Source: an uncultured Muribaculaceae bacterium (GTDB lineage Bacteria; Bacteroidota; Bacteroidia; Bacteroidales; Muribaculaceae). Taken from it: a stretch of 64,000 nt of DNA. The stretch lies in the NCBI GenBank assembly GCA_910584495.1, contig CAJUAR010000001.1, positions 15,733 to 79,732 on the forward strand, in the 5' to 3' direction. Below are positions 19,843-50,025 of the stretch, one piece after another. The stretch's first letter is position 1. Each line of letters begins with the position of its first letter. Made by a program: the position numbers and the translations under genes. The notes beneath the pieces were generated by a model, which saw only the letters and a list, made by a program, of their open reading frames with translations, was not told the DNA's origin and did not search any database.

Positions 19843-19845
19843 ACC

Positions 19846-21117: not shown

Positions 21118-21539
21118 CTGTAGCACTGATACTTTTAGCAGCCATTGTCGGCGTAGGGGCTTTGTTGTGGTTTCTCGACCGCCGACACAAAGGAACAGAT
21201 GCCGAGGAGGCGCAAAATGTCGAAGAACTCGCCGAATGTTGCGGGCAGCACGAGGTGTGCGAACGCGATTCGCTCCTTGCCGCCGTGTCGAAACAGATTG
21301 AATACTACGATGATGAGGAACTCGACCGCTTTGCCGGCCGTGAAGCCGATGAATATTCCGACGAGGAGATTGAAGAATTTCGCGATGTGCTTCTCACCCT
21401 CCGGAGCGACGACATTGCCGGCTGGGCACGAAGTATACAGCTGAGGGGTATTAAGCTGCCCGCCGACGTGCGCGAGGAATTAATCATGATGGTGTCCGAA
21501 AATCGTGCCATGCGAAAGAATAATGTTGCAGTTTCTTGA
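21114..21539 (+). CDS. Hypothetical N-terminally membrane-anchored acidic protein with a CCGxHxxCE motif
   Basis: An in-frame GTG at 21114 overlaps the aroA stop (GTGA). It is followed by a TM helix VTVALILLAAIVGVGALLWFL, then ECCGQHEVCE and an acidic YYDDEELD/EYSDEEIEEF region. The upstream part of ORF 20892..21539 lies inside aroA in another frame. Confidence 0.5.
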   Translation: MTVALILLAAIVGVGALLWFLDRRHKGTDAEEAQNVEELAECCGQHEVCERDSLLAAVSKQIEYYDDEELDRFAGREADEYSDEEIEEFRDVLLTLRSDDIAGWARSIQLRGIKLPADVREELIMMVSENRAMRKNNVAVS

Positions 21540-30219: not shown

Positions 30220-31773
30220 ATGGAAAAGATTATAAGATACCCGGTTGGCGAGCAGTCGTTCATTTCTCTTCGAAAGAGAAATTGCCTCTATATCGACAAA
30301 ACTCACTATGTGGAAAAACTACTTAGCCATGGCAGTAAGTACTACTTCCTCGGGCGTCCGCGGCGTTTCGGCAAAAGTCTTTTTCTGTCCATGCTGCAAT
30401 GTTTTTTTCAAGGTAAACGAGACTTATTCAAGGGTCTCTATGCCTACACCATGAACTGGGACTGGCAACCCAGGCCGGTGCTCTATCTCGATCTGAACAT
30501 TGAATCATATAGGCAAAAAGAATCCCTTGACCAAATACTTGATAATGTCATCAGTAGCTGGGAGAAAGAATACGACATTACCTTCCCATCCGACAATATC
30601 TCAGCAAGATTCAAGAATGTTATCGAAGCGGCATATAAAAAGACCGGGCAAGGTGTAATAATTCTTGTCGATGAATACGACAAACCCTTGGTCAACAACC
30701 TCCACGACAGCGAACTGTTCGATCACTTCCGCGAACAGCTCACCGCGGTCTACTCCAATTTAAAAAGCAGCGCCGAATTTATACGTATGGTTTTCCTCAC
30801 CGGGGTGAGTCGTTTTGCTCATCTGTCAGTGTTCTCGGGTCTTAATAATATTACCGACATCACCTTCCTCGACCAATATGCCGACATCTGCGGCATCACC
30901 GAGAAAGAACTTGCAGACAATTTTCAGCCCGGCATGATAGCTATCGCCGAAAAAGAAGGAAGCACGGCCCGGGATGTTCACGACCAGCTCAAACGACTGT
31001 ATGATGGTTACCATTTTGCCAAACGTTGCCCCGACATCTACAATCCATATTCCTTACTCAACGTGATGGAGAGTTGCGACATGCAAAACTACTGGATTAA
31101 GTCGGGCATGCCAACGCTTCTCGAACAGCAACTCAAGCGTTTCCAAGTCAATCTACAAGACCTTTTCGAAACAGAGTGTAGCCAACAAATGCTCGAAGGT
31201 CTCGACTTCGACAACCCGAATCCTGTGGCGCTGCTCTACCAGACAGGCTATCTCACCATCAAAGACTTCGACAGCGGCATCTTCACCCTCGGACTGCCTA
31301 ATCAGGAAGTGAAAGAAGGTTTTCTCGGATACCTTCTGCCACGCTATGCCAACGTCCATAACGGAGACACCGAATTTTTCATCTACAAGTTTGTCAAGGA
31401 GTTGAAAAGTGGTAAAGTCGACGACTTCATGAAACGTATGCAGAGCCTCTTTGCCGCCGTACCCTACCAGATGGAACTACACAACGAGCGCAATCTTCAC
31501 AACGTCATGCTGATGCTCGTACTGCTCTTAGGCATCAAGGTGAAAGCCGAATATGCCACCTCCGCAGGCCGCATCGACATGCTCCTCGAAACGGAGCAAT
31601 ACCTCTACATCATAGAACTTAAAATAGACAAGTCAGCTCAGGAAGCTCTGAACCAAATAAATGCCAAAGACTACGCTCAACCATTCGCTGCCAACGGTCG
31701 CCAAGTGGTGAAAATCGGTGTCAACTTTTCCACCCAAACGCGCACCATCACCGACTGGCTGGTTGAGCGGTGA
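30220..31773 (+). CDS. AAA-ATPase-like N-terminal domain fused to a PD-(D/E)XK nuclease-like C-terminal domain (AAA-ATPase_like + PDDEXK_9 architecture)
   Basis: YPVGEQSFISLRKRNCLYIDKTHYVEKLL and YYFLGRPRRFGKSLFLSML at the N-terminus. SAGRIDMLLETEQYLYIIELKIDKS at the C-terminus is a D..ExK core. Confidence 0.8.
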   Translation: MEKIIRYPVGEQSFISLRKRNCLYIDKTHYVEKLLSHGSKYYFLGRPRRFGKSLFLSMLQCFFQGKRDLFKGLYAYTMNWDWQPRPVLYLDLNIESYRQKESLDQILDNVISSWEKEYDITFPSDNISARFKNVIEAAYKKTGQGVIILVDEYDKPLVNNLHDSELFDHFREQLTAVYSNLKSSAEFIRMVFLTGVSRFAHLSVFSGLNNITDITFLDQYADICGITEKELADNFQPGMIAIAEKEGSTARDVHDQLKRLYDGYHFAKRCPDIYNPYSLLNVMESCDMQNYWIKSGMPTLLEQQLKRFQVNLQDLFETECSQQMLEGLDFDNPNPVALLYQTGYLTIKDFDSGIFTLGLPNQEVKEGFLGYLLPRYANVHNGDTEFFIYKFVKELKSGKVDDFMKRMQSLFAAVPYQMELHNERNLHNVMLMLVLLLGIKVKAEYATSAGRIDMLLETEQYLYIIELKIDKSAQEALNQINAKDYAQPFAANGRQVVKIGVNFSTQTRTITDWLVER

Positions 31774-31794: not shown

Positions 31795-34272
31795 TTAATT
31801 TGATGTGGTCGGTTTATAGTAATTGTCGTTTACGTAAGTATAGTCAGTTATTGTTGAAATATCTACTGTGGTCTCAATATTGTTATGACTGAATTTGATA
31901 TTATTCATAGTTACCGGCACATCATAATATACACTTGTCAATCCATATTGATACATCTTCGGATTACCTGCCAAGGGGCTATTATCCCATTGGCACGATA
32001 AACCGTCCGATGGTGCATTTCGTACAATTATTCGTTTGCGGTTTGTGCCCGGGTCGGGGATATCCCAACCATCAGGAACTTCCGGACCATGCAGGCAGCG
32101 CACGGTCATGGCTCTCGGTTCGCCGCCTCGTGTGCGAATTCGGGTATTGCCGAGGGTGTTGCGCTCGCCATAGAGGTCGAGATAACGGAACCACCATCCA
32201 TATTCTTCGGAGTCTTCAGAAAAACCTTGGTTGCCGGACAAAAGCGATTTAGACCACAGACACGTATGTGCCTCGTCCTTGTGCACAAACCCTTCCATAT
32301 ATCCCGCAATCGGCAAGGTGATATAGCCGAAAGCACCATCGCTGACCGCAATATTAGGTATTGCATCGACATTGTTGGACAGATTCACCGGCAACTGCTG
32401 CAGATGGTAGGCCGCCGGCACCTCGAATCCTTCGGGAGCGATGCCTTCTATAAGTGTGTTATCAAACCTTGTTTCAGCAATTTTGAAGTAGCCGCCTCTT
32501 GCGTCGGAATTTTCAGAATAGAGCGTCGACGAAACCGAGTAAGGTCGGTTGGAAGAAGCTCCCATATTACGATCCAATATGTGATATGTCTTTCCGTCTT
32601 CGCCAATAATGCTGACCTGTTCGTAGTAGAACCATCCCTTGCGCACTACGCTCTCGCCGGGTCCTTCAATCTGATAGCTGCCGCCAAGTTTATGGAAGAG
32701 GCCGCGATGGCATACGTCATAGCTTAATCTATTATTATCCGTGCTGTTGCTTATGACAAATTTACCTTCCCACAGCGCATAGTTATCATTCCCCAAAGAG
32801 CTTACTTTCCAGTTACTCCCATCGCGGACAACCGAGAAACGGCCGGCACCTTCGGCTATGTTGACAACATCGCCATCCTTATATGGAATTGTGTAATAGT
32901 ACTGATTATTATACACCCTGAAATGCAGGCAGTTATTGCGTTCAAGAGTCATGGCTTCCTCCGTAGCGCCTTGCAGTTCGGTGTCAATAAACGCAAAATA
33001 GTCCTGCTCTGAGGCGTTACCGTTGAGATTGTGGATATACGCCTTGCGTCCGCGCTTGAGGTCGGTACCTTCCTGAACAATTCTCACGGTCCGGCTAAGG
33101 TCGCCGGAGCGGACAGAGACGGTGAACTCACGTTCTTCCTCGGAAAGCAAGTTAGTTTCTATAGTGAAACTAACTTTGTAATGACGAGCTTCTGACTGCG
33201 TGTCGGATTGAACAATCTCCACCCCGGATTGTATTGAAGATTTCACCCACGGTGTTCCTTTTAAGTCGTAGTCAAGCACATAGGTTCCGTCAGGATATGA
33301 AGTGAGAATATCAATCACTGCTTCAGTAGCGTTGGCAGCGACAACTACATCTTTGCTCACTCCAAGTTCGTAGTCGCGGCAAGCAATCATATTATAGATG
33401 GCTTCGTTGTTGTCTTTGAGGTCGACAATCATGCGGTTGTCGGGCTTTGCAACAATCGCTTCCTGCTTCGTGGGCCAACCAAAATCGTTTACTTCAGCAA
33501 TGTTGAACTGATAGTGATGGTTGCGCAACAGAGCAATTTCCTTGCCGGCTGGATCTGAGGCCGGGATATATGCGGCCTTATACCATCCCTCCGTGCCCCG
33601 GTAGGAACCATGAATGAGGATATAGCACTTGCCAGCCTCGGTTTCGTAGAAATAATATGGCGTGCCGACATCCAGGAGGCGTTCGCCCTCGGTTGTCACA
33701 CCCCCGGGAATATTTACCACACCCTCTGTTTCGGGGGCAAGCGTTCCCGATGTCGATGCGCCGTAGTGGATTATCTCGCTAATGGTGAAATCGGCAGCAG
33801 TGCACGTCACTGTGGTTTTGGCACTTGCCCTCAGCAAGTAAATCTTGGGCGAGGCTTTTTTGAGATCCTCAACAGTGATTGCGCCCCACATCACTATGTT
33901 CTTGTCAGGAAGGCCTTCGACAGAGCTTGCCGACGGTGTTCCTCCGACAGCCTTACCATAGTTGGCTACCAGTTCGACTCTCGAAGCGGAAGGAGGAACC
34001 GCCAGTGTCACTTGATAATCGGGATGTTTTCCTGTAATTTTCTGAGGGTCAACCACATCCTCAAAGATATAGCCATCGGCATTGAAAAAGAGAACCCGTA
34101 AGTCGTTGATAGCGTTTTCGTCGACGGCACGCGAGCCGACGGCAAAGCCCGGCAGACGCAATGTCAGCGTCAACTCATCGCCATCGCCGCCGAGGTCGAA
34201 CACCCCGCTGTCATCGCTACACGCCGCAAACATCACGGCCATCATAAATATAGATATTAGTCTTCGTATCAT
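31795..34272 (-). CDS. Giant pilin-like lipoprotein (825 aa): fimbrillin-like N-terminus, FISUMP/DUF1566-like lectin-type region, degenerate C-terminal module
   Basis: Lipobox MFAAC. LTLTLRLPGFAVGSRAVDENAINDLRVLFF resembles the first strand and Arg site of type V pilins. The C-terminal part ILDRNMGAS..GGYF..APEGFEVPAAYHLQQL..CLWS..AMTVRCL is FISUMP-like. The gene starts 3 nt after the upstream gene. Confidence 0.6.
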   Translation of the reverse strand: MIRRLISIFMMAVMFAACSDDSGVFDLGGDGDELTLTLRLPGFAVGSRAVDENAINDLRVLFFNADGYIFEDVVDPQKITGKHPDYQVTLAVPPSASRVELVANYGKAVGGTPSASSVEGLPDKNIVMWGAITVEDLKKASPKIYLLRASAKTTVTCTAADFTISEIIHYGASTSGTLAPETEGVVNIPGGVTTEGERLLDVGTPYYFYETEAGKCYILIHGSYRGTEGWYKAAYIPASDPAGKEIALLRNHHYQFNIAEVNDFGWPTKQEAIVAKPDNRMIVDLKDNNEAIYNMIACRDYELGVSKDVVVAANATEAVIDILTSYPDGTYVLDYDLKGTPWVKSSIQSGVEIVQSDTQSEARHYKVSFTIETNLLSEEEREFTVSVRSGDLSRTVRIVQEGTDLKRGRKAYIHNLNGNASEQDYFAFIDTELQGATEEAMTLERNNCLHFRVYNNQYYYTIPYKDGDVVNIAEGAGRFSVVRDGSNWKVSSLGNDNYALWEGKFVISNSTDNNRLSYDVCHRGLFHKLGGSYQIEGPGESVVRKGWFYYEQVSIIGEDGKTYHILDRNMGASSNRPYSVSSTLYSENSDARGGYFKIAETRFDNTLIEGIAPEGFEVPAAYHLQQLPVNLSNNVDAIPNIAVSDGAFGYITLPIAGYMEGFVHKDEAHTCLWSKSLLSGNQGFSEDSEEYGWWFRYLDLYGERNTLGNTRIRTRGGEPRAMTVRCLHGPEVPDGWDIPDPGTNRKRIIVRNAPSDGLSCQWDNSPLAGNPKMYQYGLTSVYYDVPVTMNNIKFSHNNIETTVDISTITDYTYVNDNYYKPTTSN

Positions 34273-34275
34273 TGC

Positions 34276-37203
34276 TTATGGGCGTTCTGAGGTTATGCCT
34301 TTAACATCATAGTAACTGTCTCCTTTACTCAGCACAAGGTCTTTGGTCTGACTAGCTCCACCATTGCTGAATATTATTTTTTCATACATAGCATCGACTT
34401 CAATTTTAAACCAGCCGGAACCAATATTTGTCATTTCCTCACCAGGCCATCCATTGTTGGAAGCACCAGTCCAGCAGTAGGCATTTACCTTTCCCCAGTT
34501 ATTGGTATCCTTGTAGTACACCACATTTTTGGGCACTGCCGATAAATTCGGCTTGGAATGGCTCCAAATGCCGTTATTGTACGACCCCGAGCTATTGTTT
34601 TGGTCATCGACATAGTTGGCACCTCCAAACATGATACTTTCGGAATTATCTTCAAAGACTATTGTTATATACTTGTCATATTGACCTTCGGGCGCTTTGA
34701 ACACCATGCCACTTGTCTTATACCAAATTGTTCCGTCAGCATCTTGTCCGGCTTCTGCGATAATATTTGCACCAACGGTAAAAACTCCGTTATCATTAGC
34801 CTTTCCATAGTTTCTATACCATCTAACAGGTCTTTTGGTTGCGTATATAGTATAGTTCACATTTAGTATCTCAGGGCGGCTGTCAAAAACAGTATAATAT
34901 GGCATCTGAATCAAAGGGTCATACAGAATCCAGCCTTCGCGGTCTTCGTAGTCGAAAAGCTGCAGACCCGGGTCGAGATGGTGTGTACAACGATGACGTG
35001 CGGTACCGGGATTCTCGTTTCCGGGTGTATTTGCATTAAACATCAGCAGGGTTTCGCCGGGCTTGATATTTTTCTCCGATTCAGGATAGCCTGTGGCTTC
35101 TTTATTTGTAGCTTTTGCGTTGGAGTCAATTTCTTTCAAGTACCATCCGGGGAAGGAAGACTTAGTCATTTCATCGCCGGGCCATTGTTTTGAAAAAAGC
35201 CATACATAATATTTGGGAATATTACCACTTAGAGTCTCTCCAATTTGGGTGTAGACATAAATATTGTGATTACCCGACCATCCGTCGTCCCAGTTATCGT
35301 CACCTCCCTCTGTTAACGGGGTTGCAAAGGTTACAAGATACCCATCACCATTATGAGCACCCTGACGGTCGTTGATTGCGCGGAAAAGGATGCGGTAGTT
35401 GCCCACCGGTGGTTTGACGGTTACATGGATCTGACGGTTAAAGGATTCAAAATCAGGATCGCGAGGTCCGACAGAAAACACATGTACTTCTTCATGCACA
35501 GGATTGCAAGTTGCTGTGACAGTGAATGTTCCTATTGACTTTGTAGGGTCGGCACAGTGGATTTCGACCTGTGAAGAACCTTGTGTGAGGGTGAAGGGCA
35601 ACGAGTCATGGTCGATAAAGGACACCCCGCCAAGATTGGTTTCGTAGGCGAAAGTCTTGATGTAGGTGGGGCTCGCAGTTTCGTTCTCGAGCCAGTTTAT
35701 TGTTACGTCGAGAGGCTTTACAATGAACATGGGCGTAACGTCATATTCCACGTCGAGGTACTTGCGTAGGTTGTTTGCCTGAATCCACACTTTGGTCGAG
35801 CCTTGGGGAGGGAATTCGGAACCTTTGCGGAATGCACTGACCGGGATTTCGGGGTTGATGCGGAAAGTGAGGATGCCTTTTTCCACATTGTGATTGTACT
35901 GCACAATAACGGGTTTGTCGTCAATCTTATCGTCGCATCCCATAGCCACCGTCGGAGCGTTCGACACATAACATATGGAATCGTAGGTAAGCGAGCCCAC
36001 TTTGGCCCTGGTTTTATCCACAGCCAGGGTAGTGTGCCTAAAATCGGCCATAGCCACCGGCACCCAGTCGCGGACATGAACCTCGGTCTGGTACTCGGTG
36101 AATTCCGTGGTCTCGATGCGGCCGATAATTTCGTAGTAGGTGCCGCGAGGAAACTGACGTGGCTGGTCGTCGGCATTCTTGTGGCCCAGCGGTATGTGGT
36201 AGGTGTTTTTAGAGCCCGATGGGAGCGATGGAGCGACGCTGCCGTCGTCCTCAGGAGCAAGAGTTTTGTCGACTGTGATGGCCTCGATGGTGAGCACAGA
36301 CTGCCCCTCGTCGTTGCTCAGATAGCGTTCGGGCAGATAGAGCGTGCCCTGGTAGACCCACCGGTCGGCATAGCTTGAGGGTACATCGGTGCCGTTGACA
36401 GCAATCACATCCTCGTCGGCCGAAGCATTCTGGTTTTCGGACCAGGAGGCAAAATATCGTCCGGCAGCGAGAGGTGCCGTGAAGGAATCACCGGAATTGA
36501 TGTCGCTCATGGCCCCGCCAAGCACCAGGTGGGTGGAGGCTGTGAGACTTTCGCCCTTGATGGACGAAATGAGCAGACCTGTCTCACCGAAATTTTGCGC
36601 CGTGGTCTTATTGTTGACTTTGTCAAAAATAAGATTATATCGCACCTTGACGCATGTAAACTGCAGATTGGCCGTCACATCGGTGCCGGCGGGACCAATT
36701 TCGGTTGTCTCGCGAGGTTCGAAGACCATGGGCAGACTGCCCGGCACGGGCAATGTTTTTACGGAATAGGTGAGCAGCCGTTTCTTGAGGGCGGCTTCGG
36801 TTGTCACATCGGCACAAGATGGCTGATTTGCGATGACATATATGCGGTATTTGCCCGGTTTGACATTCTCTATCACATAGTTTTTATACTGTTCATCGGC
36901 AGTCTCTGCCACAGTTGGCAGCGGTGTTAGAGCCACTTTGAGCAGCTCGCCGCCGTCGACGGGAAAGGCATAGAGCCTCAAGTCGTTGATTCGCCGCTCA
37001 TCATCGGTGGCCGGCGACAGCATGTCGGGGCTCGCGGGAATGTCGGCACGCGACAGCCCCCCGACGGCGCCCGTAACGAGGCGCACCGTCAGAGTGCCGG
37101 GCTGAATGGGAGCGTCGCAGCCCAAACCGTCAGAGCATGCGCCGGCCAGCAGGCACAGTACAAAGACCAAACAAAATGCAATATATCGCAGCAATGACAG
37201 CAT
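34276..37203 (-). CDS. Giant pilin-like lipoprotein (975 aa) with C-terminal CBM25/26-like carbohydrate-binding modules; candidate pilus tip adhesin
   Basis: Lipobox LLAGAC. LTVRLVTGAVGGLSRADIP, INDLRLYAF and YRIYVIAN are fimbrillin-like. The last 330 aa contain two WPG..M modules (YVWLFSKQWPGDEMTKSSFPGWYLKEI..LLMFNAN and VVYYKDTNNWGKVNAYCWTGASNNGWPGEEMTNIGSGWFKIEV..KIIFSNGGASQTKDL). Confidence 0.65.
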   Translation of the reverse strand: MLSLLRYIAFCLVFVLCLLAGACSDGLGCDAPIQPGTLTVRLVTGAVGGLSRADIPASPDMLSPATDDERRINDLRLYAFPVDGGELLKVALTPLPTVAETADEQYKNYVIENVKPGKYRIYVIANQPSCADVTTEAALKKRLLTYSVKTLPVPGSLPMVFEPRETTEIGPAGTDVTANLQFTCVKVRYNLIFDKVNNKTTAQNFGETGLLISSIKGESLTASTHLVLGGAMSDINSGDSFTAPLAAGRYFASWSENQNASADEDVIAVNGTDVPSSYADRWVYQGTLYLPERYLSNDEGQSVLTIEAITVDKTLAPEDDGSVAPSLPSGSKNTYHIPLGHKNADDQPRQFPRGTYYEIIGRIETTEFTEYQTEVHVRDWVPVAMADFRHTTLAVDKTRAKVGSLTYDSICYVSNAPTVAMGCDDKIDDKPVIVQYNHNVEKGILTFRINPEIPVSAFRKGSEFPPQGSTKVWIQANNLRKYLDVEYDVTPMFIVKPLDVTINWLENETASPTYIKTFAYETNLGGVSFIDHDSLPFTLTQGSSQVEIHCADPTKSIGTFTVTATCNPVHEEVHVFSVGPRDPDFESFNRQIHVTVKPPVGNYRILFRAINDRQGAHNGDGYLVTFATPLTEGGDDNWDDGWSGNHNIYVYTQIGETLSGNIPKYYVWLFSKQWPGDEMTKSSFPGWYLKEIDSNAKATNKEATGYPESEKNIKPGETLLMFNANTPGNENPGTARHRCTHHLDPGLQLFDYEDREGWILYDPLIQMPYYTVFDSRPEILNVNYTIYATKRPVRWYRNYGKANDNGVFTVGANIIAEAGQDADGTIWYKTSGMVFKAPEGQYDKYITIVFEDNSESIMFGGANYVDDQNNSSGSYNNGIWSHSKPNLSAVPKNVVYYKDTNNWGKVNAYCWTGASNNGWPGEEMTNIGSGWFKIEVDAMYEKIIFSNGGASQTKDLVLSKGDSYYDVKGITSERP

Positions 37204-37206
37204 GTT

Positions 37207-38289
37207 TCAGAGTTTTATGTTCTGTATACGTTTAGACCAGGCGAGGACAGAGATGGACAGCTCGACATATTGCCACGTGTCGCCACGGAGGAAGAAATCA
37301 AGTTTATAGTCGTGCTCGCGGTCGAGGAATTCCTGCGGTGAGTAGTTGAGATGCTCAAATGCTCCGCGTCCCTGAGCCAGACAGTCGGGCAGATTGATAC
37401 GGGCCACGGTTTTGCCCGTGGTGCGGTTGGTGATGGTGAGCATGGCGTTTCGGGCGTTGTCGGCAGCCGCCGGATAGTGCATTATGCGGTTGAAGGCCAG
37501 CGCGGCATGCGCAGTGCGTTCCAGGTGGTCGGTGTCGTCGGTGGTTTCGCCCTCGGCACGTCCGGCTGTGCCGAACTCAGTATTCCAGAGAGCGTAGGGG
37601 GTATAGGTTAGAGCTTCGTCGTCGAGCAGTGTGTTGTCGTAGCCTATCTTGCCGTTTGCGGCGGTGATGGAAATGTCAAAATCCTGAATGTCGATATTGG
37701 CTGGAGCGTCAAGGTTGTGAAGGCTCACTGTCAGGTTTTTGGTGTCGCGCATCAGGCTGATGGTCTGCGATGCCGCCTCCATGTCGCGAACCACTATGGG
37801 TTGTGCACCCATGCCGTGCCACAGTGTGTCGAGCGGGGCCGAAGAATCAACAAAGCCTTCTGTGCGGTCTAAGGTCACGCCAAGGTCTGTCATGGCATGT
37901 GTGGTGTTGAGTACTGTGCGTCGATATTTTGCTCCCTTGCCTGCAAGACATTCGTTGTAGCTGCGCTGGTGAGCGAGGGCTATAAAGCTATACTTGCCCG
38001 GCTCAAGGTCGAGGTGCATAGTGTAGAGCGGCGAGGCAAGCGGACGATTGGTGGCGGTGTTATATTCCTCTTTAGAAGTCAGGAACTTACCCTGCTCGTC
38101 GAAGACATAGACAGTGACAGCGCCCACGTGGGCAGGGAACATGTCGGCGCGGTCGATATTATAGTCGTAGACAAACTTCAGATCTACGCCCGACGGACAC
38201 TCCTCGAGGTCGTCGTGCATCAGCGAGCATCCGCTCGCAGCCACCGCCAGGGCTGCAAACAGGGGCAATATGCGTTTTTTTACTGTCAT
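37207..38289 (-). CDS. FimB/Mfa2-family fimbrial anchor subunit
   Basis: Lipobox AASGC followed by DDLEECPSGVDLKFVYDYNIDRADMF and VTVYVFDEQGKFL, the typical Mfa2-family opening. 360 aa. Confidence 0.75.
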   Translation of the reverse strand: MTVKKRILPLFAALAVAASGCSLMHDDLEECPSGVDLKFVYDYNIDRADMFPAHVGAVTVYVFDEQGKFLTSKEEYNTATNRPLASPLYTMHLDLEPGKYSFIALAHQRSYNECLAGKGAKYRRTVLNTTHAMTDLGVTLDRTEGFVDSSAPLDTLWHGMGAQPIVVRDMEAASQTISLMRDTKNLTVSLHNLDAPANIDIQDFDISITAANGKIGYDNTLLDDEALTYTPYALWNTEFGTAGRAEGETTDDTDHLERTAHAALAFNRIMHYPAAADNARNAMLTITNRTTGKTVARINLPDCLAQGRGAFEHLNYSPQEFLDREHDYKLDFFLRGDTWQYVELSISVLAWSKRIQNIKL

Positions 38290-38365: not shown

Positions 38366-40075
38366 TTAGAGAACTACATTCTGCACTCGCTTAGCCCATG
38401 AATGAACATTGCAACGCACACTGATATAGTAATTATTTTCATCATCGGGGGTTGAAGGAGCCTCTGGCACATCAGGTTTACCCAGCGACTTGATGCCTGA
38501 AACTTCGAGAGAATACCAGTTGTTACGGAGCACGCCGTAACGGCCGAGATAATTATCATCGACATCTTCAGTACCATAAGCTGCCGAACCGGGAATCCAG
38601 GGAGTATACGTTTCGCCAAAGTGTTGAACACGTGCCACATAGAAACATTCACCGTTCAGATAGGTGTTGATGTTCTTACCCTCTGCATCGCTACCAAAAG
38701 CATCATTCAGAATCTGGATTTCGGTCTCCGAAAGTGCTACCGCTGTTTCCTTCGTTTCGCCATATTTTACATCAGCCGGCGAAAGTTTATGTTTACCACG
38801 TGTTTTGGATACAGTTTCGGTACCGTCGACAAAATATTTAGCCTGGTCTTTCTTATCCTCAAGCAGCTCAACAGCCTTGCTAATAATGTAGTTACGAAGA
38901 CCTTCTTTGTTGTAGATAGTATTGGACTGTCCGAATGTATAGAATGTAGATGCTTTGTCTTCTCCTTCAGCCTTGAATTCGGCTTTCAGAATGACACGTG
39001 TGGTCTCATCGCGATTCTGGTGCGCTACATTGAATGTGTTTTCACGGCAATAGACATATTTCCCGGGATCGGTAGTAAATTTAGTATCCTTATTCTTATC
39101 ATTTACAAGACTGTATAAGTCTCCTACAGCCGGATAAGTATTATAGTTGGGATCTTTAGCCCAAAATATGCGTTCTGAGGAAGAACTATAGAAACGAGTT
39201 CCCGTCTTAGCTCCTGTCACTTTAGATGCAAGATTTTTCCAGGAATCAAAGTCGCTGACATTGCGCACAAGATACGATTTGTTATTTGTAAGGTCAATAG
39301 CCCATTTAGTAATGGTTGCAGTGTAGTTCTTTCGGTCTGCTGCACCTTCGCCGTTGTCAAATGGAAGATTCTCAATTTTGTTTGTTGTTCCGGCTGTATT
39401 CTTATCAACAACCTGTACTTTTGCCACAGCACGCTCTACAAAGACATTAATAGCAGTCGAACCCAGAGCAGCTTCCTGAGTGCTCTTTATATCTTCTTTC
39501 GCTATTTTAACAAGAGTCTGTGCTTTTTCGTTTTTATAGAGAGGTGCATTGGTCATAAAGATACCGTTTGCGGTGAAGTCCATATCGCTAGCCACTCCGG
39601 TAAGATTGGAGAATTTAGTGCCCTTGGCGAAATGAGTATTAGCATCATTGTCATTGAGAACAATAAGTACCCAGAGGTTATCTGCAGGAGCGTCATTGAT
39701 TCTTTGCACTGTCTGAGCTGTCGTTGTAACATTTCCGATAGTGGTTTGCTGATTCCAAGGTTTGAGAGTGGTCATTTCGTATATATTCTTAACCACGGCT
39801 TCCGCTTCGGAATCACCTTGGAAAATGACAAGATGTGCCTTGTTGACAGCGTACTCACTTGCTTCGCCGTCGTCGAAATGATCGTTTCCTTGACCTTCAT
39901 AGGGATCGCCCTCGGCACGACTTCCGTCAGCATCGACAGAAGGCAGATTGATGCTCACATTAAGGTAGCTCGTTCCGGTTTCTGAGCCGGGATTCTGAGC
40001 TGGTTCGTCGCTGCTGCAAGATGCCAGCGAGAGCATTGCGGCGGCTGCGATGAACGGGAGTGATTTGAATTTCAT
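38366..40075 (-). CDS. Mfa1-family major (stalk) fimbrial subunit
   Basis: Lipobox SLASC, then YLNVSINLPSVDADGSRAEG (first strand plus Arg site). The 569-aa length and its position directly upstream of the Mfa2-like anchor gene fit the family. Confidence 0.7.
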   Translation of the reverse strand: MKFKSLPFIAAAAMLSLASCSSDEPAQNPGSETGTSYLNVSINLPSVDADGSRAEGDPYEGQGNDHFDDGEASEYAVNKAHLVIFQGDSEAEAVVKNIYEMTTLKPWNQQTTIGNVTTTAQTVQRINDAPADNLWVLIVLNDNDANTHFAKGTKFSNLTGVASDMDFTANGIFMTNAPLYKNEKAQTLVKIAKEDIKSTQEAALGSTAINVFVERAVAKVQVVDKNTAGTTNKIENLPFDNGEGAADRKNYTATITKWAIDLTNNKSYLVRNVSDFDSWKNLASKVTGAKTGTRFYSSSSERIFWAKDPNYNTYPAVGDLYSLVNDKNKDTKFTTDPGKYVYCRENTFNVAHQNRDETTRVILKAEFKAEGEDKASTFYTFGQSNTIYNKEGLRNYIISKAVELLEDKKDQAKYFVDGTETVSKTRGKHKLSPADVKYGETKETAVALSETEIQILNDAFGSDAEGKNINTYLNGECFYVARVQHFGETYTPWIPGSAAYGTEDVDDNYLGRYGVLRNNWYSLEVSGIKSLGKPDVPEAPSTPDDENNYYISVRCNVHSWAKRVQNVVL

Positions 40076-40088: not shown

Positions 40089-41453
40089 TTAATGATTAGT
40101 ATTTTGTTTGTTTATCTCTCGGATTAAATCGATTGCGCGGCGCACTTGCCGGGCCTCTTCGCAATCGGGCACTTTTTCAATGTATTGCTCAGCCGAAACG
40201 ATGTCGTGGCGGTTTGCGGCATTGATGGCGGCATTTAGGTTTGCCGTGGGGTCCTTTGGAAATAGGTGCACAGCCACGTCGAACACTCGGTTGAACTCGT
40301 CGCTTCCTGCAGGATAGCTCTGAGCCACAAGGAAAAGCTCCTGAAGGCTTAGCTGCCCCGGTTTATCGACAAAGATGCGACGCGCCTCTTCGAGGTTGAA
40401 GGCACGCACAGTGTAGTGGACGGTATAGTCGGAGTGTCGCAGTGCCGGATAGACGTTCTCAAGCAAGTAGGCATACTGGGCGGGGAAACGCTGCCTGAGT
40501 CGACGGTCGCGAGCATCGGGAGCAAGCGTGCTGTCGTTGATTACGGCAAGCAAGCCCTGAGTGTTGTCGAGGTGCAGCGAATCGGCCACATAGCGTCGCA
40601 GTCCGTCCCAGTCCTCAGGTGTCGAGGCAACGTTGAAAATCGAACGGTCGAAGTTCCTCAACCTTGCCACATAGTCGGCCAGAGCCTTGGCACGGCCTTG
40701 AGCAAGACGCACGTTGTTGGCGTATGGACCTTCGGGCGAAGCATATCCGTGGATGTCGATAGCGGTTATTGTTACGTTCGAATCGTTCCTGACAAGGTCG
40801 ACGGTTGATATAATCTTGGCCAGCTCCACGGTGTTGCGACGATAATCCGGGCGAATCTCGGTGCGGTTCACACGGAAATCGATAAATGCGCTTCCGCTCT
40901 CGCTGCGGTCCTTGATTCCCTCGGCTTTAGGCTCGACATAGCAGGTAAGAGGCTTGAAGAAGAGTTGTGGCCTACGGCGGTCGATTACATCGAGAGTGTC
41001 CTTGCGGCGGTCCAGAATGTCGCCGCATCCGCAGTAGTCGTTGGAGAGCGTCAGGAAGGCATGCTCCATCCATGGCTGATAGTCGACTGAAGCGGAGTAG
41101 TCGAAGCTCTGGGGCTTACCGTCGTGGCGTCGAATCTCGAGCCCCTCGAAATCGCCCCTGTTGCGTTCGAAGCTGATGTGCTGACGGCGTCCGTTAACCA
41201 TCAGTGGAGTGAACGCGGCCTCGCCGATGCTGTCGATGCCGGTGAGCACGGGCGTATAGACAATGCGGCGGTTCGATGTCACACGGAGTGAATCGAAACG
41301 CAAGGTCATATCAAGAAAAAGCTTGCCGTTTGCAACACCGGTTACAACCGAATCGACAATAATACCTGTAGGAGCAGCCTCGTTGCGTGCATCTGTAGCT
41401 CCGGCGGTCAGTGCCATAGCCACAGCAAAAATGATGGAAATAATCTTTCTCAT
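40089..41453 (-). CDS. DUF3868-type protein with an OmpA-like peptidoglycan-binding segment
   Basis: I chose the start at MRKIISIIFAVAMALTAGA (signal peptide); the longer ORF-track start would overlap the upstream gene. IHGYASPEGPYANNVRLAQGRAKALADYV is an OmpA_C-like motif. The position between DUF3575 and Mfa1 genes matches the usual Bacteroidales layout. Confidence 0.65.
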   Translation of the reverse strand: MRKIISIIFAVAMALTAGATDARNEAAPTGIIVDSVVTGVANGKLFLDMTLRFDSLRVTSNRRIVYTPVLTGIDSIGEAAFTPLMVNGRRQHISFERNRGDFEGLEIRRHDGKPQSFDYSASVDYQPWMEHAFLTLSNDYCGCGDILDRRKDTLDVIDRRRPQLFFKPLTCYVEPKAEGIKDRSESGSAFIDFRVNRTEIRPDYRRNTVELAKIISTVDLVRNDSNVTITAIDIHGYASPEGPYANNVRLAQGRAKALADYVARLRNFDRSIFNVASTPEDWDGLRRYVADSLHLDNTQGLLAVINDSTLAPDARDRRLRQRFPAQYAYLLENVYPALRHSDYTVHYTVRAFNLEEARRIFVDKPGQLSLQELFLVAQSYPAGSDEFNRVFDVAVHLFPKDPTANLNAAINAANRHDIVSAEQYIEKVPDCEEARQVRRAIDLIREINKQNTNH

Positions 41454-41461
41454 GGCGGCAA

Positions 41462-42031
41462 TCAGAAAATATAAAGGACAGACAAAGCGGCCTTGGTCGG
41501 ACCGACGTAATTGCGGTGCTTGCGGTCGAGGCAACGGTCGCAGCGGCCATAGAGCTTATAGGGGCTGTAGGCGTAGCCCAGACCGATGGAGGCCTCTATG
41601 TTCCAATGGCGCGAAATCATCCACTGGTAGCCGTAGGTAAGACCGGCACCTATATACCAGCCTTCGTAGTGCCGACCCTTTTCTGTTTTGGGGAGGGTGC
41701 CGAAAGGCAGGTCGACATTGCGCACGTTGTACTCGCCGCCAAGTGCATGTACACCGAGGAAGTGTCCGTTAAAAGCTTCACAGAACCAATGGCGCAATTC
41801 AGGCTGCACAGTCCAGAAACGCGCCCGTTTGTCGCCCGAGAAAGTCCAGGGGTTGAGAGCGCCAAAAATCTGAACGGTCTGCCGGTGTGACACAGCAGCT
41901 TCCGCTCCGAAGTTAAGAGTTGTGGAGGCCCACGCTAATGCGTTGGTCTTCATTGCCACGGTCTGTGCCGCCGTTTTAACCAACAAAGAAGCCATCATGG
42001 CAAAGGTCAAAAAAAGAGTCACCTTTTTCAT
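41462..42031 (-). CDS. DUF3575-family small outer-membrane beta-barrel protein
   Basis: 189 aa. KTNALAWASTTLNFGAEAAVS, QPELRHWFCEAFNGHFLG and GPTKAALSVLYIF match my recollection of the DUF3575 pattern. Confidence 0.75.
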   Translation of the reverse strand: MKKVTLFLTFAMMASLLVKTAAQTVAMKTNALAWASTTLNFGAEAAVSHRQTVQIFGALNPWTFSGDKRARFWTVQPELRHWFCEAFNGHFLGVHALGGEYNVRNVDLPFGTLPKTEKGRHYEGWYIGAGLTYGYQWMISRHWNIEASIGLGYAYSPYKLYGRCDRCLDRKHRNYVGPTKAALSVLYIF

Positions 42032-42202
42032 GCAAAATATGAGCTAACTACACGGAAGCTGCCAACGGCACCATCCATTATAAGCGGTATGATTTATAAT
42101 CTCAAATTAATTAATAACAGCCGAGGGGTCGACTATTCCTAATCCTTATTATTAGATTTAATGTATAATCCTTGTAAAAAATATCCTTTCTTGTTTTCGT
42201 CG

Positions 42203-42234
42203 CAAAAATACGTAAAAAAAATACCCCCCCCAAA
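42203..42234 (-). promoter_or_regulatory. Candidate promoter of the pilus locus (-33 TTTG, 20-nt spacer containing G7 and T8 runs, -7 TATTTTTG)
   Basis: The minus strand reads TTTG-GGGGGGGTATTTTTTTTACG-TATTTTTG. The -7 box lies 172 nt upstream of the DUF3575 ATG. Confidence 0.35.
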
Positions 42235-42242
42235 AAATTTTT
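42214..42242. repeat. Adjacent homopolymer tracts A8-TA-C8-A6-T5
   Basis: Counted directly: A 42214..42221, C 42224..42231, A 42232..42237, T 42238..42242. Confidence 0.95.
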
Positions 42243-42376
42243 AACACACTTTAACCTTACGCATGTCAATGGTTGATGATTTTATCAATCACCTTTATCC
42301 GGAGCCGTAAAAAAAACATCTTTCTTGTCGGTTTGTTATATTTTTAGTAACTTAGGCAATTCAATTACATACAACA

Positions 42377-43042
42377 ATGAAACGATTCTGTATTTTGAGC
42401 CTCATCCTTGCAGCCGCTGCCACGTTTACAGCCCGCGGACAGTACTATGAAATTGCCAACCAGCTGCCACAACTTCTGCGTCCGGCCCTATCGGGTTCGG
42501 CCAACTACAAGGGTTTTGTCGAAATCTCGGGCCTCGCAGGCGTGGGACACAACCGCGCCAATGTCATCGACTTCTCCACCAGCCAGGGCTTTCAGTACAA
42601 CTCGTGGTTCTACATGGGCGTGGGAGTGGGAGTTGACATTGCCATGGCACAGCAGCCTTCGCTGCGTGACAACGATCCCGACTACGGCTATCTTGACCGC
42701 GACAACAAGAAGACCAAAGTGATGATTCCTCTATTCAGCGACTTCCGCTTCAACATCGGCAGCCGCGAGAGCACCTCGTTCTTTGCCGACATCAGACTTG
42801 GTGCCGCATGGATGGTGGGCAACGGCTATCTGCGCATGGCTGATGCATGTATGAGCAACAGCACACAGTTCTACCTGCGACCTACAATAGGTGTGCGTAT
42901 GCCTGTCAAGGCCGGCGACACAAGGCATGCCTTCAACATTGGCATCACCTACCAGTTGCTGACATCGAACAACAACTACTACCGCGATTCCAACTCGGTG
43001 AGCCTCAACAACTTCGGCGCATCAATAAGTTACGAGTGGTAG
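42377..43042 (+). CDS. Small outer-membrane beta-barrel (porin-family-like) protein
   Basis: Signal peptide MKRFCILSLILAAAATFTARGQ, alternating strands, and an aromatic C-terminus SISYEW. Confidence 0.5.
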   Translation: MKRFCILSLILAAAATFTARGQYYEIANQLPQLLRPALSGSANYKGFVEISGLAGVGHNRANVIDFSTSQGFQYNSWFYMGVGVGVDIAMAQQPSLRDNDPDYGYLDRDNKKTKVMIPLFSDFRFNIGSRESTSFFADIRLGAAWMVGNGYLRMADACMSNSTQFYLRPTIGVRMPVKAGDTRHAFNIGITYQLLTSNNNYYRDSNSVSLNNFGASISYEW

Positions 43043-43071
43043 CAGCCGTTGGAGGTTTGGCCAAAATTTTG

Positions 43072-43079
43072 TAACTTTG
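43072..43079 (+). promoter_or_regulatory. Candidate -7 box (TAACTTTG) only 7 nt upstream of the sigma-54 activator ATG
   Basis: Exact TAnnTTTG match. If it is used, the mRNA would be leaderless or nearly so. Confidence 0.3.
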
Positions 43080-43086
43080 CTCTCTG

Positions 43087-44304
43087 ATGAAAGAAAGTTC
43101 GACAACCATACCTCCTCAAGTTCTGCAGGCCAAGCAACGCTTCGGCATCATCGGTAACGCCCCAGCCCTGGTGGCGGCAGTGGAACGCGCCCTTCGCGTG
43201 GCCCCAATCGATCTGTCGGTGCTCGTCACCGGCGAGAGTGGTGCCGGCAAGGAGTTTTTTCCACAGATAATCCATGCCTACAGTGCCCGAAAGCACGCTA
43301 AATACATAGCCGTCAACTGCGGTGCCATCCCCGAAGGCACCATCGACTCCGAACTCTTCGGACATGAAAAAGGCGCCTTCACCGGGGCTGTGGATTCGCG
43401 AAAAGGCTACTTCGAGGAAGCTGACGGCGGCACCATTTTTCTCGACGAAGTGGCCGAAATGCCTCTCACCACCCAGGCACGCCTGCTGCGCGTGCTCGAA
43501 AGCGGCGAATATATCAAGGTGGGTTCGTCGACGGTGCAGAAAACCAATGTGCGCATCGTTGCCGCTACAAATGTCGACCTCCTTGCCGCAGTGTCGCAGG
43601 GCAAGTTCCGAGAAGACCTCTACTACCGTCTGTCCACGGTCCAGATTCATGTGCCTCCGCTCCGCGACCGAGGCATGGACATACGACTGCTAACACGCAA
43701 ATTTGCCGCCGATTTTTCGGAGCGTTACCGCATGCCCTCCATCAGTTTCACCGAAGAAAGCGATGACGCACTGCGCCACTACCGCTGGCCGGGCAATGTG
43801 CGCCAGCTCAAAAACGTGGTAGAGCAATTAGCCTTGTTCGAGGGCGGAAACACAATATCGGTAAGCACGCTCGAAGAATATCTGCCGTCGGTCAACACCT
43901 CGTATATGCCCGTGGCCGGAGGCGACCTCCACAGCTACCAGCGCGAACGTGAAATGCTTTTCGGCATGATTTTCAACCTGCAGAGCCGAATCGACGAACT
44001 TCAGCAGCAAATGGCAAAAAATTCCTTTCACTCCTCGCTTATGGTACACCCCAAGGAAGTGGAAACCAACGCCGCACCGCCATGCAGCGAGGTGAGCTAC
44101 TCCGAAGTGACAGAGCAGCCACGGATTCCGACAACGGCAATAGTCCGCTCGCCGCAACCGCCGGCGAGCCTCGAAGACAACGAACGCGAGATGATTCGCC
44201 GGGCTCTCGAACGTAACGAAGGCCGACGCAAAGCCGCAGCTGCCGAACTACAGATTTCAGAACGCACACTATACCGCAAAATCAAAGAATATGGCATGGA
44301 ATAA
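43087..44304 (+). CDS. Sigma-54-dependent transcriptional activator (AAA+ domain plus C-terminal Fis-type HTH, no N-terminal sensory domain)
   Basis: Walker A GESGAGKE, the sigma-54 contact loop GHEKGAFTGA, Walker B GGTIFLDEV, and C-terminal AAAELQISERTLYRKIKEYG. Confidence 0.88.
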   Translation: MKESSTTIPPQVLQAKQRFGIIGNAPALVAAVERALRVAPIDLSVLVTGESGAGKEFFPQIIHAYSARKHAKYIAVNCGAIPEGTIDSELFGHEKGAFTGAVDSRKGYFEEADGGTIFLDEVAEMPLTTQARLLRVLESGEYIKVGSSTVQKTNVRIVAATNVDLLAAVSQGKFREDLYYRLSTVQIHVPPLRDRGMDIRLLTRKFAADFSERYRMPSISFTEESDDALRHYRWPGNVRQLKNVVEQLALFEGGNTISVSTLEEYLPSVNTSYMPVAGGDLHSYQREREMLFGMIFNLQSRIDELQQQMAKNSFHSSLMVHPKEVETNAAPPCSEVSYSEVTEQPRIPTTAIVRSPQPPASLEDNEREMIRRALERNEGRRKAAAAELQISERTLYRKIKEYGME

Positions 44305-46748: not shown

Positions 46749-48749
46749 ATGAACAAACTTAGCATCATCACTTTGGCCTCGCTGCTGACGGTATCGGCAG
46801 CGAGCGCCAAACAATCGACCCAGACCCTCAGCTCTCCCGACGGCAAAATCACCGTAACTGTCAACACCGGCGACAAACTGGCCTACTCCATAGCCCTCAA
46901 CGGCCGCACCGTGCTCGAACAGACACCTATTTCTATCGACATTGCCGGCGGCAAAAGCATAGGCACATCTCTCAAAGGTGTTTCGGCTCGCAAAGGCAAA
47001 GTAGATGGCACTGTGCCTTCGCCATTCTATCGCTCTACGTCAATTGCCGAAAAATATAACAGCCTTACCCTCAAAGTCGACCGCGAATGGAATGTGGACT
47101 TCCGCGCCTACGACGACGGCGTGGCCTACCGCTTTGAATATACCGGCAAAAAGCCTCTCGACATTGCTGCCGAGAATGCCCGTTTCACCTTCACGGGCGA
47201 TGCCGTGGCAACTGTGCCCTACGTCAAGGCCGAAGAAGGTGCTTCGTTCGAAAAACAGTTCTTCAACTCATTTGAGAACACCTACACCACAGCCAAACTG
47301 TCGGCCCTCGACAGTCGCCGCCTCATCTTCACCCCGGCTGTTGTGGAAGCCGTGCCCGGTGTCAAACTGATGTTTATGGAGAGCGGTCTGCTCAACTATC
47401 CGGGAATGTACCTTAACAAAACCGACGGCAACGCCCTTCGCGCCATGTTCGCCCCCTACCCCAAAACAACGCAGCAGGGCGGCCACAACAAGTTGCAAAG
47501 CCTCGTCAAGAGCCGCGAGACCTATATTGCCCACATCGACGGACCCCGCGCACTGCCTTGGCGAGTATGCGTTGTAGCCGACGACGACCGCACACTTGCC
47601 TCTACCGAACTTTCCTACCTCCTGGCCGAACCATCGCGTGTGACCGACACTTCGTGGATCAAGCCCGGCAAGGTGGCATGGGACTGGTGGAACGCCTGGA
47701 ACATCGACGGAGTCGATTTCGAAGCCGGCATCAACAATCAGACATATAAATTCTACATCGACTTCGCATCGAAGTACGGCATCGAATATGTGATTCTCGA
47801 CGAAGGCTGGGCTGTCAACAAGAAGGCCGACTTATTCCAGGTTGTGCCCGAAATCAACCTTGAGGAACTTGTGGAATATGCCCGCACCAAAAACGTGGGT
47901 CTTATTCTCTGGGCCGGATATTATGCCTTCAACCGCGACATGGAGCATGTGTGCAAGCACTATTCCGAAATGGGCATCAAAGGTTTCAAAGTCGATTTCA
48001 TGGACCGCGACGACCAGCAGATGACCGACTTCGAGGACCGTGCCGCAGCCATGGCGGCAAAATACGGCCTTGTGCTCGACCTCCACGGCAGCTACAAACC
48101 TGCCGGCATGAACCGCACCTATCCCAACGTTCTCAACTTCGAGGGCGTTCACGGCCTTGAACAGATGAAATGGAGCAAACAGGGTGTAGACCAGGTTACT
48201 TACGACGTTCAGCTGCCCTTCATCCGTCAGGCTTCAGGCCCGATGGACTACACACAGGGCGCAATGCGAAACGCTACGAAGAAAAACTATGCCCCCGTCA
48301 ACAGCGAACCTATGAGCCAGGGCACACGCTGCCGCCAGCTGGCAATGTACATGGTGTTCGACGCTCCTCTCAACATGCTCTGCGACAGTCCTTCGGCCTA
48401 TATGCGCGAGCCCGAATGTACAGAGTTCATCGCCGGTGTGCCAACCTACTGGGACGAAACTCGCATCCTCGCCGGCAAAATGGGCGAATATATCATCACT
48501 GCACGCCGCAAGGGCGACAATTGGTATATAGGCGGCATGACCAACTGGGATGCCCGCGACATGGAGCTTGATCTCAGTTTCCTCGAAAGCGGCAAGACAT
48601 ACGAGGCCGACATCTTTGCCGACGGTGTGAACGCACACCGCATAGCACGCGACTTCCGCCACTATTCCACCACCGTCGAGGCCGGCACCAAACTGCCCCT
48701 CCACGCAGCCCCCGGCGGTGGCTTCGCCCTCAAACTGACTTTGAATTAA
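46749..48749 (+). CDS. Glycoside hydrolase family 97 (SusB-like alpha-glucosidase)
   Basis: 666 aa. SSPDGKITVTVNTGDKLAYSIALNGRTVLEQTPISIDI is the typical GH97 N-terminus, and the catalytic-domain text GIEYVILDEGW and GFKVDFMDRDDQ also fits. Confidence 0.85.
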   Translation: MNKLSIITLASLLTVSAASAKQSTQTLSSPDGKITVTVNTGDKLAYSIALNGRTVLEQTPISIDIAGGKSIGTSLKGVSARKGKVDGTVPSPFYRSTSIAEKYNSLTLKVDREWNVDFRAYDDGVAYRFEYTGKKPLDIAAENARFTFTGDAVATVPYVKAEEGASFEKQFFNSFENTYTTAKLSALDSRRLIFTPAVVEAVPGVKLMFMESGLLNYPGMYLNKTDGNALRAMFAPYPKTTQQGGHNKLQSLVKSRETYIAHIDGPRALPWRVCVVADDDRTLASTELSYLLAEPSRVTDTSWIKPGKVAWDWWNAWNIDGVDFEAGINNQTYKFYIDFASKYGIEYVILDEGWAVNKKADLFQVVPEINLEELVEYARTKNVGLILWAGYYAFNRDMEHVCKHYSEMGIKGFKVDFMDRDDQQMTDFEDRAAAMAAKYGLVLDLHGSYKPAGMNRTYPNVLNFEGVHGLEQMKWSKQGVDQVTYDVQLPFIRQASGPMDYTQGAMRNATKKNYAPVNSEPMSQGTRCRQLAMYMVFDAPLNMLCDSPSAYMREPECTEFIAGVPTYWDETRILAGKMGEYIITARRKGDNWYIGGMTNWDARDMELDLSFLESGKTYEADIFADGVNAHRIARDFRHYSTTVEAGTKLPLHAAPGGGFALKLTLN

Positions 48750-50000: not shown

Positions 50001-50025
50001 CAAAAGTAATCAACAGTCTTTAGCT

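Follow-up and report, generated by a model that had tools for sequence, protein, structure and literature searches.

In gut Bacteroidales, type V pilus operons number in the dozens. Very little is known of the ligands of gut type V pili (2025 review, PMC12632263), and ligand identification was named an open need in a study of pilins diversified by diversity-generating retroelements (DGRs; bioRxiv 10.1101/2024.11.15.621889). This report concerns a gene of an uncultured Muribaculaceae bacterium (Bacteroidota; GenBank assembly GCA_910584495.1, contig CAJUAR010000001.1) within a stretch of 64,000 nucleotides (nt; positions 15,733 to 79,732 of the forward strand; hereafter the window). Its 975-amino-acid (aa) product joins a type V pilin core to a C-terminal carbohydrate-binding module (CBM) of family 26. 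The protein is probably an accessory subunit in the tip complex of an Mfa-type type V pilus and bears alpha-glucan-binding modules at its distal end, a reading to which we give a probability of roughly 0.62. Type V tip pilins with C-terminal ligand-binding or lectin domains have already been described (PMC12632263; bioRxiv 10.1101/2024.11.15.621889); new here are the particular module, CBM26, and the ligand that it implies.

The closest described pilins are Mfa3, BdiFim1C and BovFim2C, all third-gene accessory pilins, of which BdiFim1C (a tip pilin; PDB 4jg5) and BovFim2C (3up6) are the nearest relatives of Mfa3 (PMC5789003). Like the 975-aa protein, they are lipoprotein precursors with an anchor strand, an Arg or Lys site and a core of two beta-sandwich domains; they are encoded by the third pilin gene, after those for stalk and anchor, and carry sequence beyond the core. 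A conserved Trp closes the pilin core (W341 in Mfa3, W554 in Mfa1; PMC5789003) and has its counterpart here in W380, past which Mfa3 has ~105 residues and the 975-aa protein 595, in five further domains. No CBM has been reported for Mfa3, BdiFim1C or BovFim2C, unlike the 975-aa protein.

Other systems resemble this protein in plan. The DGR-diversified tip adhesins BfrT, BthT and BunT of Bacteroides likewise consist of a pilin part, a connector and a C-terminal head, and are encoded at the end of an anchor/stalk operon (bioRxiv 10.1101/2024.11.15.621889); however, their head has a C-type-lectin fold, is made hypervariable by the retroelement and has an unknown ligand, whereas the head here is a static CBM26 with a known ligand class. 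In the Ruminococcus bromii amylosome, Sas6 and Sas20 are also non-catalytic, and keep cells attached to starch by combining CBM26, immunoglobulin (Ig)-like spacers and a second starch-binding module, with the same aromatic triad (bioRxiv 10.1101/2022.11.20.514607). They differ in being displayed through dockerin and cohesin by a Gram-positive host, with CBM74 as the partner module; the protein described here is of a strand-exchange pilus type, occurs in Bacteroidota and has as partner a module termed mid1. FimH-type tip lectins of chaperone-usher pili, which also place a glycan-binding domain distal to a pilin domain, offer an analogy only, since they share neither assembly system nor fold nor ligand (mannose) with the CBM26 pilin. 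SusE and SusF are surface starch-binding lipoproteins of the Sus system of Bacteroides thetaiotaomicron; they share with the CBM26 pilin a Bacteroidota surface lipoprotein character, tandem beta-sandwich starch-binding domains and the lack of a catalytic domain, but their genes lie in a polysaccharide utilisation locus with SusC/D and they are neither pilins nor CBM26 members, and no SusC/D was found among the open reading frames (ORFs) scanned here.

A full-text literature search, which included Muribaculaceae, found no paper in which CBM26 or a starch-binding module is linked to type V pili or to fimbrillins, in agreement with a preliminary description of this DNA whose author was aware of no such module on a type V pilus subunit. 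The pilin-CBM26 fusion appears to be undescribed in the literature; the domain pair is already visible in precomputed Pfam annotations.

The pilin core and the terminal CBM26 module

The gene and the parts of its product are as follows, with the basis of each assignment in parentheses.

34276..37203, minus strand, stop codon included: 975-aa accessory pilin with C-terminal starch-binding-type modules (ORF list and translation)
37135..37203, minus strand: signal peptide and lipobox (aa 1-23, LAGA-C23), then S24-D25 (sequence reading; conservation in 53 homologues)
37045..37101, minus strand: anchor (first) beta-strand GTLTVRLV and loop with the putative processing site Arg52-Ala53 (aa 35-53; AlphaFold2 [AF2] strand and invariance)
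36064..37014, minus strand: type V pilin core of two beta-sandwich domains (aa 64-380), with the invariant W380 at its end (Pfam and Foldseek)
35404..36027, minus strand: two Ig-like beta-sandwich spacer domains (aa 393-600; AF2)
34864..35403, minus strand: mid1 module (aa 601-780; profile and fold comparisons)
34534..34863, minus strand: mid2 beta-sandwich (aa 781-890; AF2)
34279..34533, minus strand: terminal CBM26 module (aa 891-975, Pfam match aa 895-956; Pfam and PDB match)

The translation contains the segments quoted in the preliminary description, INDLRLYAF, YRIYVIAN and the final unit VVYYKDTNNWGKVNAYCWTG...QTKDLVL, and the C-terminal extension singled out there (34279..35268) is aa 646-975. 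The identical 975-aa protein was called on 24 contigs read, among them NCBI GCA_948527755.1.

The N-terminal part of the protein is a FimA-type pilin core. The N-terminus reads ...LLAGA-C23-SD, and in 53 homologues C23 is invariant and S24 and D25 are near-invariant. A beta-strand is predicted by AF2 at aa 36-43, followed by a loop with R52 and A53, both invariant in the same homologues; R52-A53 is a putative processing site, its role being carried over from the type V pilus literature, where the Arg site is described (PMC13655056, PMC5789003). The Pfam family P_gingi_FimA matched aa 64-160 (27.6 bits, cut-off 21.4), and W380, which marks the end of the core, is invariant in the 53 homologues. 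The full-length AF2 model, built on an alignment of close homologues, has a mean predicted local distance difference test score (pLDDT) of 69.5, with low confidence at aa 600-780. A Foldseek comparison of this model with the PDB gave BdiFim1C (4jg5) as the best match (E 3.8e-12), and the other top matches, 3up6 (BovFim2C), 4gpv, 5nf4 (Mfa3), 4rdb, 3r4r and 5nfi (Mfa2), are all type V pilins; E-values spanned 4e-12 to 2e-6 for 4jg5, 3up6, 4gpv, 5nf4, 4rdb and 5nfi, and were given as 1e-12 to 1e-9 for BdiFim1C, BovFim2C and Mfa3, with a sequence identity to BdiFim1C, BovFim2C and Mfa3 of just 12-14%. The position of the gene as third pilin gene agrees with this fold match to third-gene accessory pilins. 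The description of the N-terminal half as type V pilin-like, with a lipobox and a first strand plus Arg site, is thus borne out.

The last unit of the protein is a genuine CBM26 and a formal member of the family. In the kind of profile search proposed in the preliminary description, aa 895-956 matched Pfam CBM26 (PF16738; E 5e-16) at 59 bits, where the gathering cut-off is 28.1 (60-63 bits on fragments), and a PDB sequence search with the last 330 aa retrieved both CBM26 repeats of R. bromii Amy16 (9qf9; E 1.6e-18); together, these two E-values place the CBM26 identity far beyond chance. The preliminary description had staked its proposal on a significant CBM match and on fimbrillin-like N-terminal sequence, and both were found: the CBM26 match is significant, and the N-terminal half fits fimbrillin models and pilin folds within an Mfa1/Mfa2 operon. 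Residues 892-966 form all-beta strands in the full-length model (pLDDT ~85). A profile of the family tails matched only starch-active proteins in the PDB: R. bromii Amy16, Amy10, Amy4 and Amy12, E. rectale Amy13K, Sas6, and the B. halodurans alpha-amylase G-6 (2c3g). The terminal module also shares 34-35% identity with the three CBM26 repeats found in a GH13 amylase of Duncaniella (Muribaculaceae).

To our knowledge, CBM26 is known only as an alpha-glucan binder. Y909-C-W911 and W919-P-G align with VYAY...EWPG of Sas6 and with Amy16, and Q952 also lies in the module; in these alignments the aromatic triad Y909/W911/W919 corresponds to Sas6 Y53/Y55/W63. In Sas6, Y55 and W63 engage in CH/pi stacking and Y53 provides a hydrogen bond, and the Trp equivalent to Sas6 W63 in LaCBM26 (W32) is essential (bioRxiv 10.1101/2022.11.20.514607). 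The alignment of the triad residues with those of Sas6 indicates that the alpha-glucan-binding platform of the terminal module is intact. From sequence we infer alpha-glucan as the ligand of the terminal CBM26, and most probably alpha-1,4-glucan as that of the pilin.

The DNA coding for the terminal CBM26 (34279-34545) has a G+C content of 42.7%, lower than that of the window (52.6%) and of the operon (50.2%), which could reflect acquisition of the domain or merely a composition rich in Asn, Lys and Tyr.

The mid1 module and its neighbouring domains

The preliminary description had seen two CBM25/26-like units in the last 330 aa. The terminal one is the CBM26 described above; the first, which lies within mid1, is only remotely CBM26-like. 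The 180-aa mid1 module has a CBM26-like core at about aa 645-732 with Y649-x-Y651 and W674-P-G, and contains a strongly conserved RHRCTHHLDPGLQLFDYEDREGW segment. Its additions to the core are an N-terminal strand (YRILFRAIND), a 20-residue insert and a highly conserved C-terminal RHRCTHHLDPGLQLFDYEDREGWILYDP (aa 733-763; 34915-35007, minus strand). The last of these is conserved more strongly than any other part of the proteins of the family, the canonical CBM26 included, and its His, Cys, Asp and Glu residues might bind metal or form an interface.

On its own, the first unit scored only 13.8-15.2 bits against Pfam CBM26 (E 0.02-0.07), below the cut-off of 28.1, and it lacks the 'QT.DL' part of the two-unit pattern on which the two had been paired. 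The poor confidence of the full-length model at aa 600-780 was mended by a diverse alignment of cluster representatives: a mid1 model based on 28 mid1 sequences reached a pLDDT of 82 and a predicted template modelling score of 0.81. The seven best PDB matches of this model in Foldseek were all CBM25/CBM26 (2c3x, 2laa, 2c3w, 2c3h, 2lab, 2c3v), but with weak E-values of 0.13-0.3 (TM-scores 0.46-0.58 relative to the target). Among those 28 sequences, 11 matched Pfam CBM26, the best of them at E 9e-6, while other families were not hit repeatedly; the best match of a mid1 profile in the PDB was the Amy13K starch-binding module (E 0.035). In hhalign, mid1 aligned with the CBM26 tails at a probability of 89% (E 2e-6, 44 columns), with Y649-x-Y651 and W674-P-G paired with Y909-x-W911 and W919-P-G, and a strict profile hidden Markov model (HMM) of the tails alone gave 13-20 bits at the mid1 position in 117 proteins. 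A jackhmmer search seeded with the terminal CBM26 drew in mid1 at E 3e-25, a figure that was not relied on because of the tiny database and the possibility of drift on iteration.

By profile and model, mid1 is best described as holding a remote CBM26-like core, CBM26-like and without formal membership of the family. A serious competitor, which we would put somewhat short of even odds, is that mid1 is no CBM but a structural or protein-interaction domain, docking for example the 825-aa pilin encoded next to it, and that its WPGxxM...GWY likeness stems from distant common ancestry or convergence. The sub-threshold Pfam score (15.2 bits), the Foldseek E-values and the low tail-only HMM scores are all compatible with such a domain, as are the large conserved N- and C-terminal additions, including RHRCxHH...DREGW, which are foreign to CBM26, and the variability of the W of the WPG motif in the wider family. 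It is opposed by four independent comparisons (Pfam, the Amy13K match, hhalign and the seven Foldseek matches) that each rank starch-binding CBMs first, and by the alignment of Y649, Y651 and W674 with the binding triad; all three residues are invariant in the 53 closer homologues, whereas the wider family keeps both tyrosines only.

A search of 1.84 billion cluster representatives with aa 601-890 returned 99 matches, nearly all of them pilin fusions and almost all of 850-1100 aa with the same order of pilin, Ig-like and mid1 parts. The stretch with mid1 is therefore largely confined to this pilin family.

The full-length model divides the extension into the pair of Ig-like domains, mid1, mid2 and the terminal CBM26. 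The two Ig-like domains (aa 393-600) are all-beta by DSSP with a pLDDT of ~80-92 in the full-length model, and matched no Pfam family. The mid2 domain (aa 781-890) likewise consists of strands (pLDDT ~80); it had no recurrent Pfam match across 24 homologues and no PDB match. The candidacy of mid2 as a third CBM-like unit was ruled out, with no consistent Pfam or PDB match and an hhalign probability against CBM26 of 9.6%. Some distant family members (P0165, P0173, P0175, P0176 and others) have a CBM25/26-like unit of the form ..YIYxxxxxxW..xM..YYYxVPxGYxxGxVIF.. that is nested within mid2, not appended to it, and ~14 representatives stop directly after mid2 with no added module.

Operon, neighbourhood and relatives

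The CBM26 pilin gene stands fifth in a row of six closely spaced genes on one strand and is the third pilin gene of an Mfa-type operon, in the order DUF3575, DUF3868/OmpA, Mfa1, Mfa2, CBM26 pilin and 825-aa pilin. The other genes of the operon, and the nearby GH97 gene, are listed here.

41462-42031, minus strand: DUF3575 gene (Pfam E 1.4e-66)
40089-41534, minus strand: DUF3868/OmpA-like gene, true start probably further downstream (weak Pfam DUF3868 and OmpA matches)
38366..40075, minus strand: Mfa1-family major (stalk) pilin (NCBIfam fim_Mfa1_fam 183.8 bits, cut-off 130; Pfam Fimbrillin_C E 4.9e-27)
37207..38289, minus strand: Mfa2-family anchor pilin (Pfam Mfa2 E 1.7e-55)
31795..34272, minus strand: second large accessory pilin, 825 aa, with a pilin N-terminus, a BACON-like domain and an unassigned C-terminal half (Pfam P_gingi_FimA 22.4 bits, cut-off 21.4)
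46749..48749, plus strand: GH97 gene, outside the operon

The Mfa1 and Mfa2 genes are separated by 76 nt, and 3 nt lie between each of the last three genes. The Mfa1-like and Mfa2-like proteins end in ...SWAKRVQNVVL and ...AWSKRIQNIKL, respectively, both shortly past their Trp, as in donor-strand pilins. The 825-aa pilin has a lipobox, a GSRA site and the motif INDLRVLFF; its BACON-like domain scored 18 bits, and 25.8-26.3 bits in its homologues, and the ~400-aa part after this domain had no PDB relative by sequence search. A CBM26 at the C-terminus of the 825-aa pilin is unsupported (tail HMM 4.3 bits; no Pfam match in the pilin or four homologues). By eye, its last 60 aa recall the second half of CBM26 (VYYDVPV..NIKFSHNN..T.DI).

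The operon is flanked by genes for SecDF, an AAA-ATPase/PDDEXK_9 protein, a sigma-54 activator, a thioredoxin-like protein and GH97, with housekeeping genes and GH20 further out; the GH97 gene is, as noted in the preliminary description, near the operon but not part of it. Region 41950-43100, upstream of the operon, contained no inverted repeats indicative of an invertible promoter, and no DGR was noticed in the window, although no search aimed at DGRs was made. A 221-aa ORF with no Pfam match (42377-43042, plus strand) is divergent from the pilus operon and directly ahead of the sigma-54-dependent activator (43087-44304); it might be an operon regulator or not a gene. At some distance on either side of the region lies a PD-(D/E)XK-family gene, AAA-ATPase_like/PDDEXK_9 at 30220-31773 and a PDDEXK_2 transposase-like gene at 49972-50985.

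Relatives of the full-length protein numbered 2026 among the candidates scored, and the best 120 of these were all of ~975 aa with PF16738. Named genomes with homologues of 47-50% identity are metagenome-assembled genomes (MAGs) assigned to Muribaculaceae, Duncaniella or 'Porphyromonadaceae'. As judged from these sequences, the pilin-CBM26 fusion is common, with relatives assigned mainly to Muribaculaceae. The six-gene operon is also present in four further Muribaculaceae loci, by Pfam in L003 and by the order and sizes of ORFs in L004, L006 and L002. In L003, which comes from a Duncaniella MAG, the GH13 alpha-amylase whose three CBM26 repeats were compared above (1647 aa; 17772-22715) is encoded 2.3 kb downstream of the pilus operon. 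Among wider-family members scanned, 14 of 47 carry the terminal CBM26; other members end after mid2 or have a CBM-like unit nested in mid2.

Proposed function and its alternatives

The domain identities, the operon, the conservation and the predicted folds are results of the analysis; that the protein is cleaved and built into a pilus, where in the fibre it sits and what it binds are the parts of the proposal that we infer, and the mechanism is drawn from type V pilus biology (PMC13655056, PMC5789003, PMC12632263). The 975-aa protein would be exported, lipidated at C23 and placed on the surface, where a protease would cut after the invariant R52, so that the anchor strand is lost and a groove opens. 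The Mfa1-like stalk subunit would insert its C-terminal donor strand into this groove, so that the 975-aa protein comes to lie at the far end of a fibre which the Mfa2-like subunit terminates and anchors. The two Ig-like spacers would project mid1, mid2 and the canonical CBM26 beyond the pilin core; the Y909/W911/W919 platform would bind alpha-1,4-glucan chains (starch, glycogen or malto-oligosaccharides), and Y649/Y651/W674 of mid1 might do likewise. With two modules on each subunit and numerous pili on each cell, adhesion would be multivalent, and would tether the cell to starch particles or keep alpha-glucan near the surface; tethering of cells to starch or another alpha-glucan is the probable outcome. 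A distal position is consistent with descriptions of tip pilins, which typically have C-terminal ligand-binding domains, some lectin-like (PMC12632263), and are without donor strands (PMC13655056): the C-terminus of the 975-aa protein is the CBM26 module, unlike the W-x-K-R-x-Q-N-x-x-L tails of the Mfa1- and Mfa2-like proteins.

Several observations weigh against this assignment. The segment after W380 is flexible (pLDDT <50 in the AF2 model) and could, as modelled, serve as an internal donor strand, and either of the two large accessory pilins of the operon could be the distal one. Mfa3 is considered an adaptor with donor strands (PMC13655056), and it is this presumed adaptor that the 975-aa protein resembles by gene position and fold; the rank of 'tip' is thus not established, and the closest description is an accessory pilin of the Mfa3/BdiFim1C type. 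On the side of the ligand, isolated RbCBM26 showed no detectable binding to granular starch (bioRxiv 10.1101/2022.11.20.514607), and adhesion would depend on avidity, since single CBM26 modules bind weakly. No SusC/D pair, GH13 gene or starch utilisation locus was found among the scanned ORFs of the window, and an amylase neighbour was ruled out as a general feature, as it occurs in one of four related loci (L003), with unrelated neighbours in L004 and L006. Finally, the terminal CBM26 is less conserved than mid1 and missing from many distant members, so that the core function conserved in the family may be served by parts other than CBM26.

That the protein is instead a stand-alone glycan-binding lipoprotein, lipid-anchored in the outer membrane or on vesicles and never polymerised, with the pilin fold and Ig-like domains as a stalk in the manner of SusE and SusF, would account for the lipobox with an S-D motif after the Cys and for the long multi-domain stalk that precedes the binding modules, as in surface glycan-binding proteins; pilin-like proteins outside pili have been reported, namely the periplasmic BovT and BfiT (bioRxiv 10.1101/2024.11.15.621889). 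We consider this improbable: the loop that follows the first strand carries the invariant R52, a hallmark of processed type V pilins; the gene lies 3 nt past the Mfa2 anchor gene and downstream of the Mfa1 stalk gene in an operon that is conserved across genera; and no SusC/D pair is near among the scanned ORFs of the window. There is an equally slim chance that the protein is a pilus subunit with a ligand other than dietary starch, its CBM26-type modules recognising a different glycan or cell surface (an exopolysaccharide or capsule of bacteria, for example, or a glycan of the host), and acts in co-aggregation or colonisation, not nutrient capture. The type V pili of P. gingivalis are known for co-aggregation and host adhesion (PMC13655056). 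It is mid1, not the canonical CBM26, that is most conserved in the family, while the terminal CBM26 is absent or replaced in many distant relatives and the window has no linkage to a starch locus. These points are countered by the intact alpha-glucan aromatic triad, by the starch-active nature of all PDB matches of the tail profile and by the CBM26-bearing amylase adjoining the pilus operon of L003; moreover, CBM26 is not known to bind anything but alpha-glucan.

An alpha-glucan-binding accessory subunit of a type V pilus would have consequences at several levels. Alpha-glucan binding by the pilus is directly testable, because the ligand-binding end belongs to a family with a well-defined ligand class; should this CBM26 not bind starch, that result would inform on the breadth of specificity of the family. 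The mid1 module, largely confined to this pilin family, is a candidate new carbohydrate-binding domain. More speculative, and rather unlikely in our estimation, is a dedicated 'starch-grappling' type V pilus of Muribaculaceae and related gut Bacteroidales, with a bipartite alpha-glucan site made up of CBM26 and of mid1 as a hitherto unrecognised, lineage-specific, CBM26-derived starch-binding module with RHRCxHH...DREGW. If such a pilus existed, it would give access to starch granules independent of polysaccharide utilisation loci and would be a Bacteroidota counterpart of the adherence proteins of the R. bromii amylosome; mid1 could then qualify as a new CBM family, and the pilus could help to explain the response of Muribaculaceae to starch-rich diets. 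The accessory-subunit reading itself, if true, would tie pili to the capture of dietary polysaccharide in Muribaculaceae, an abundant but little-studied gut family.

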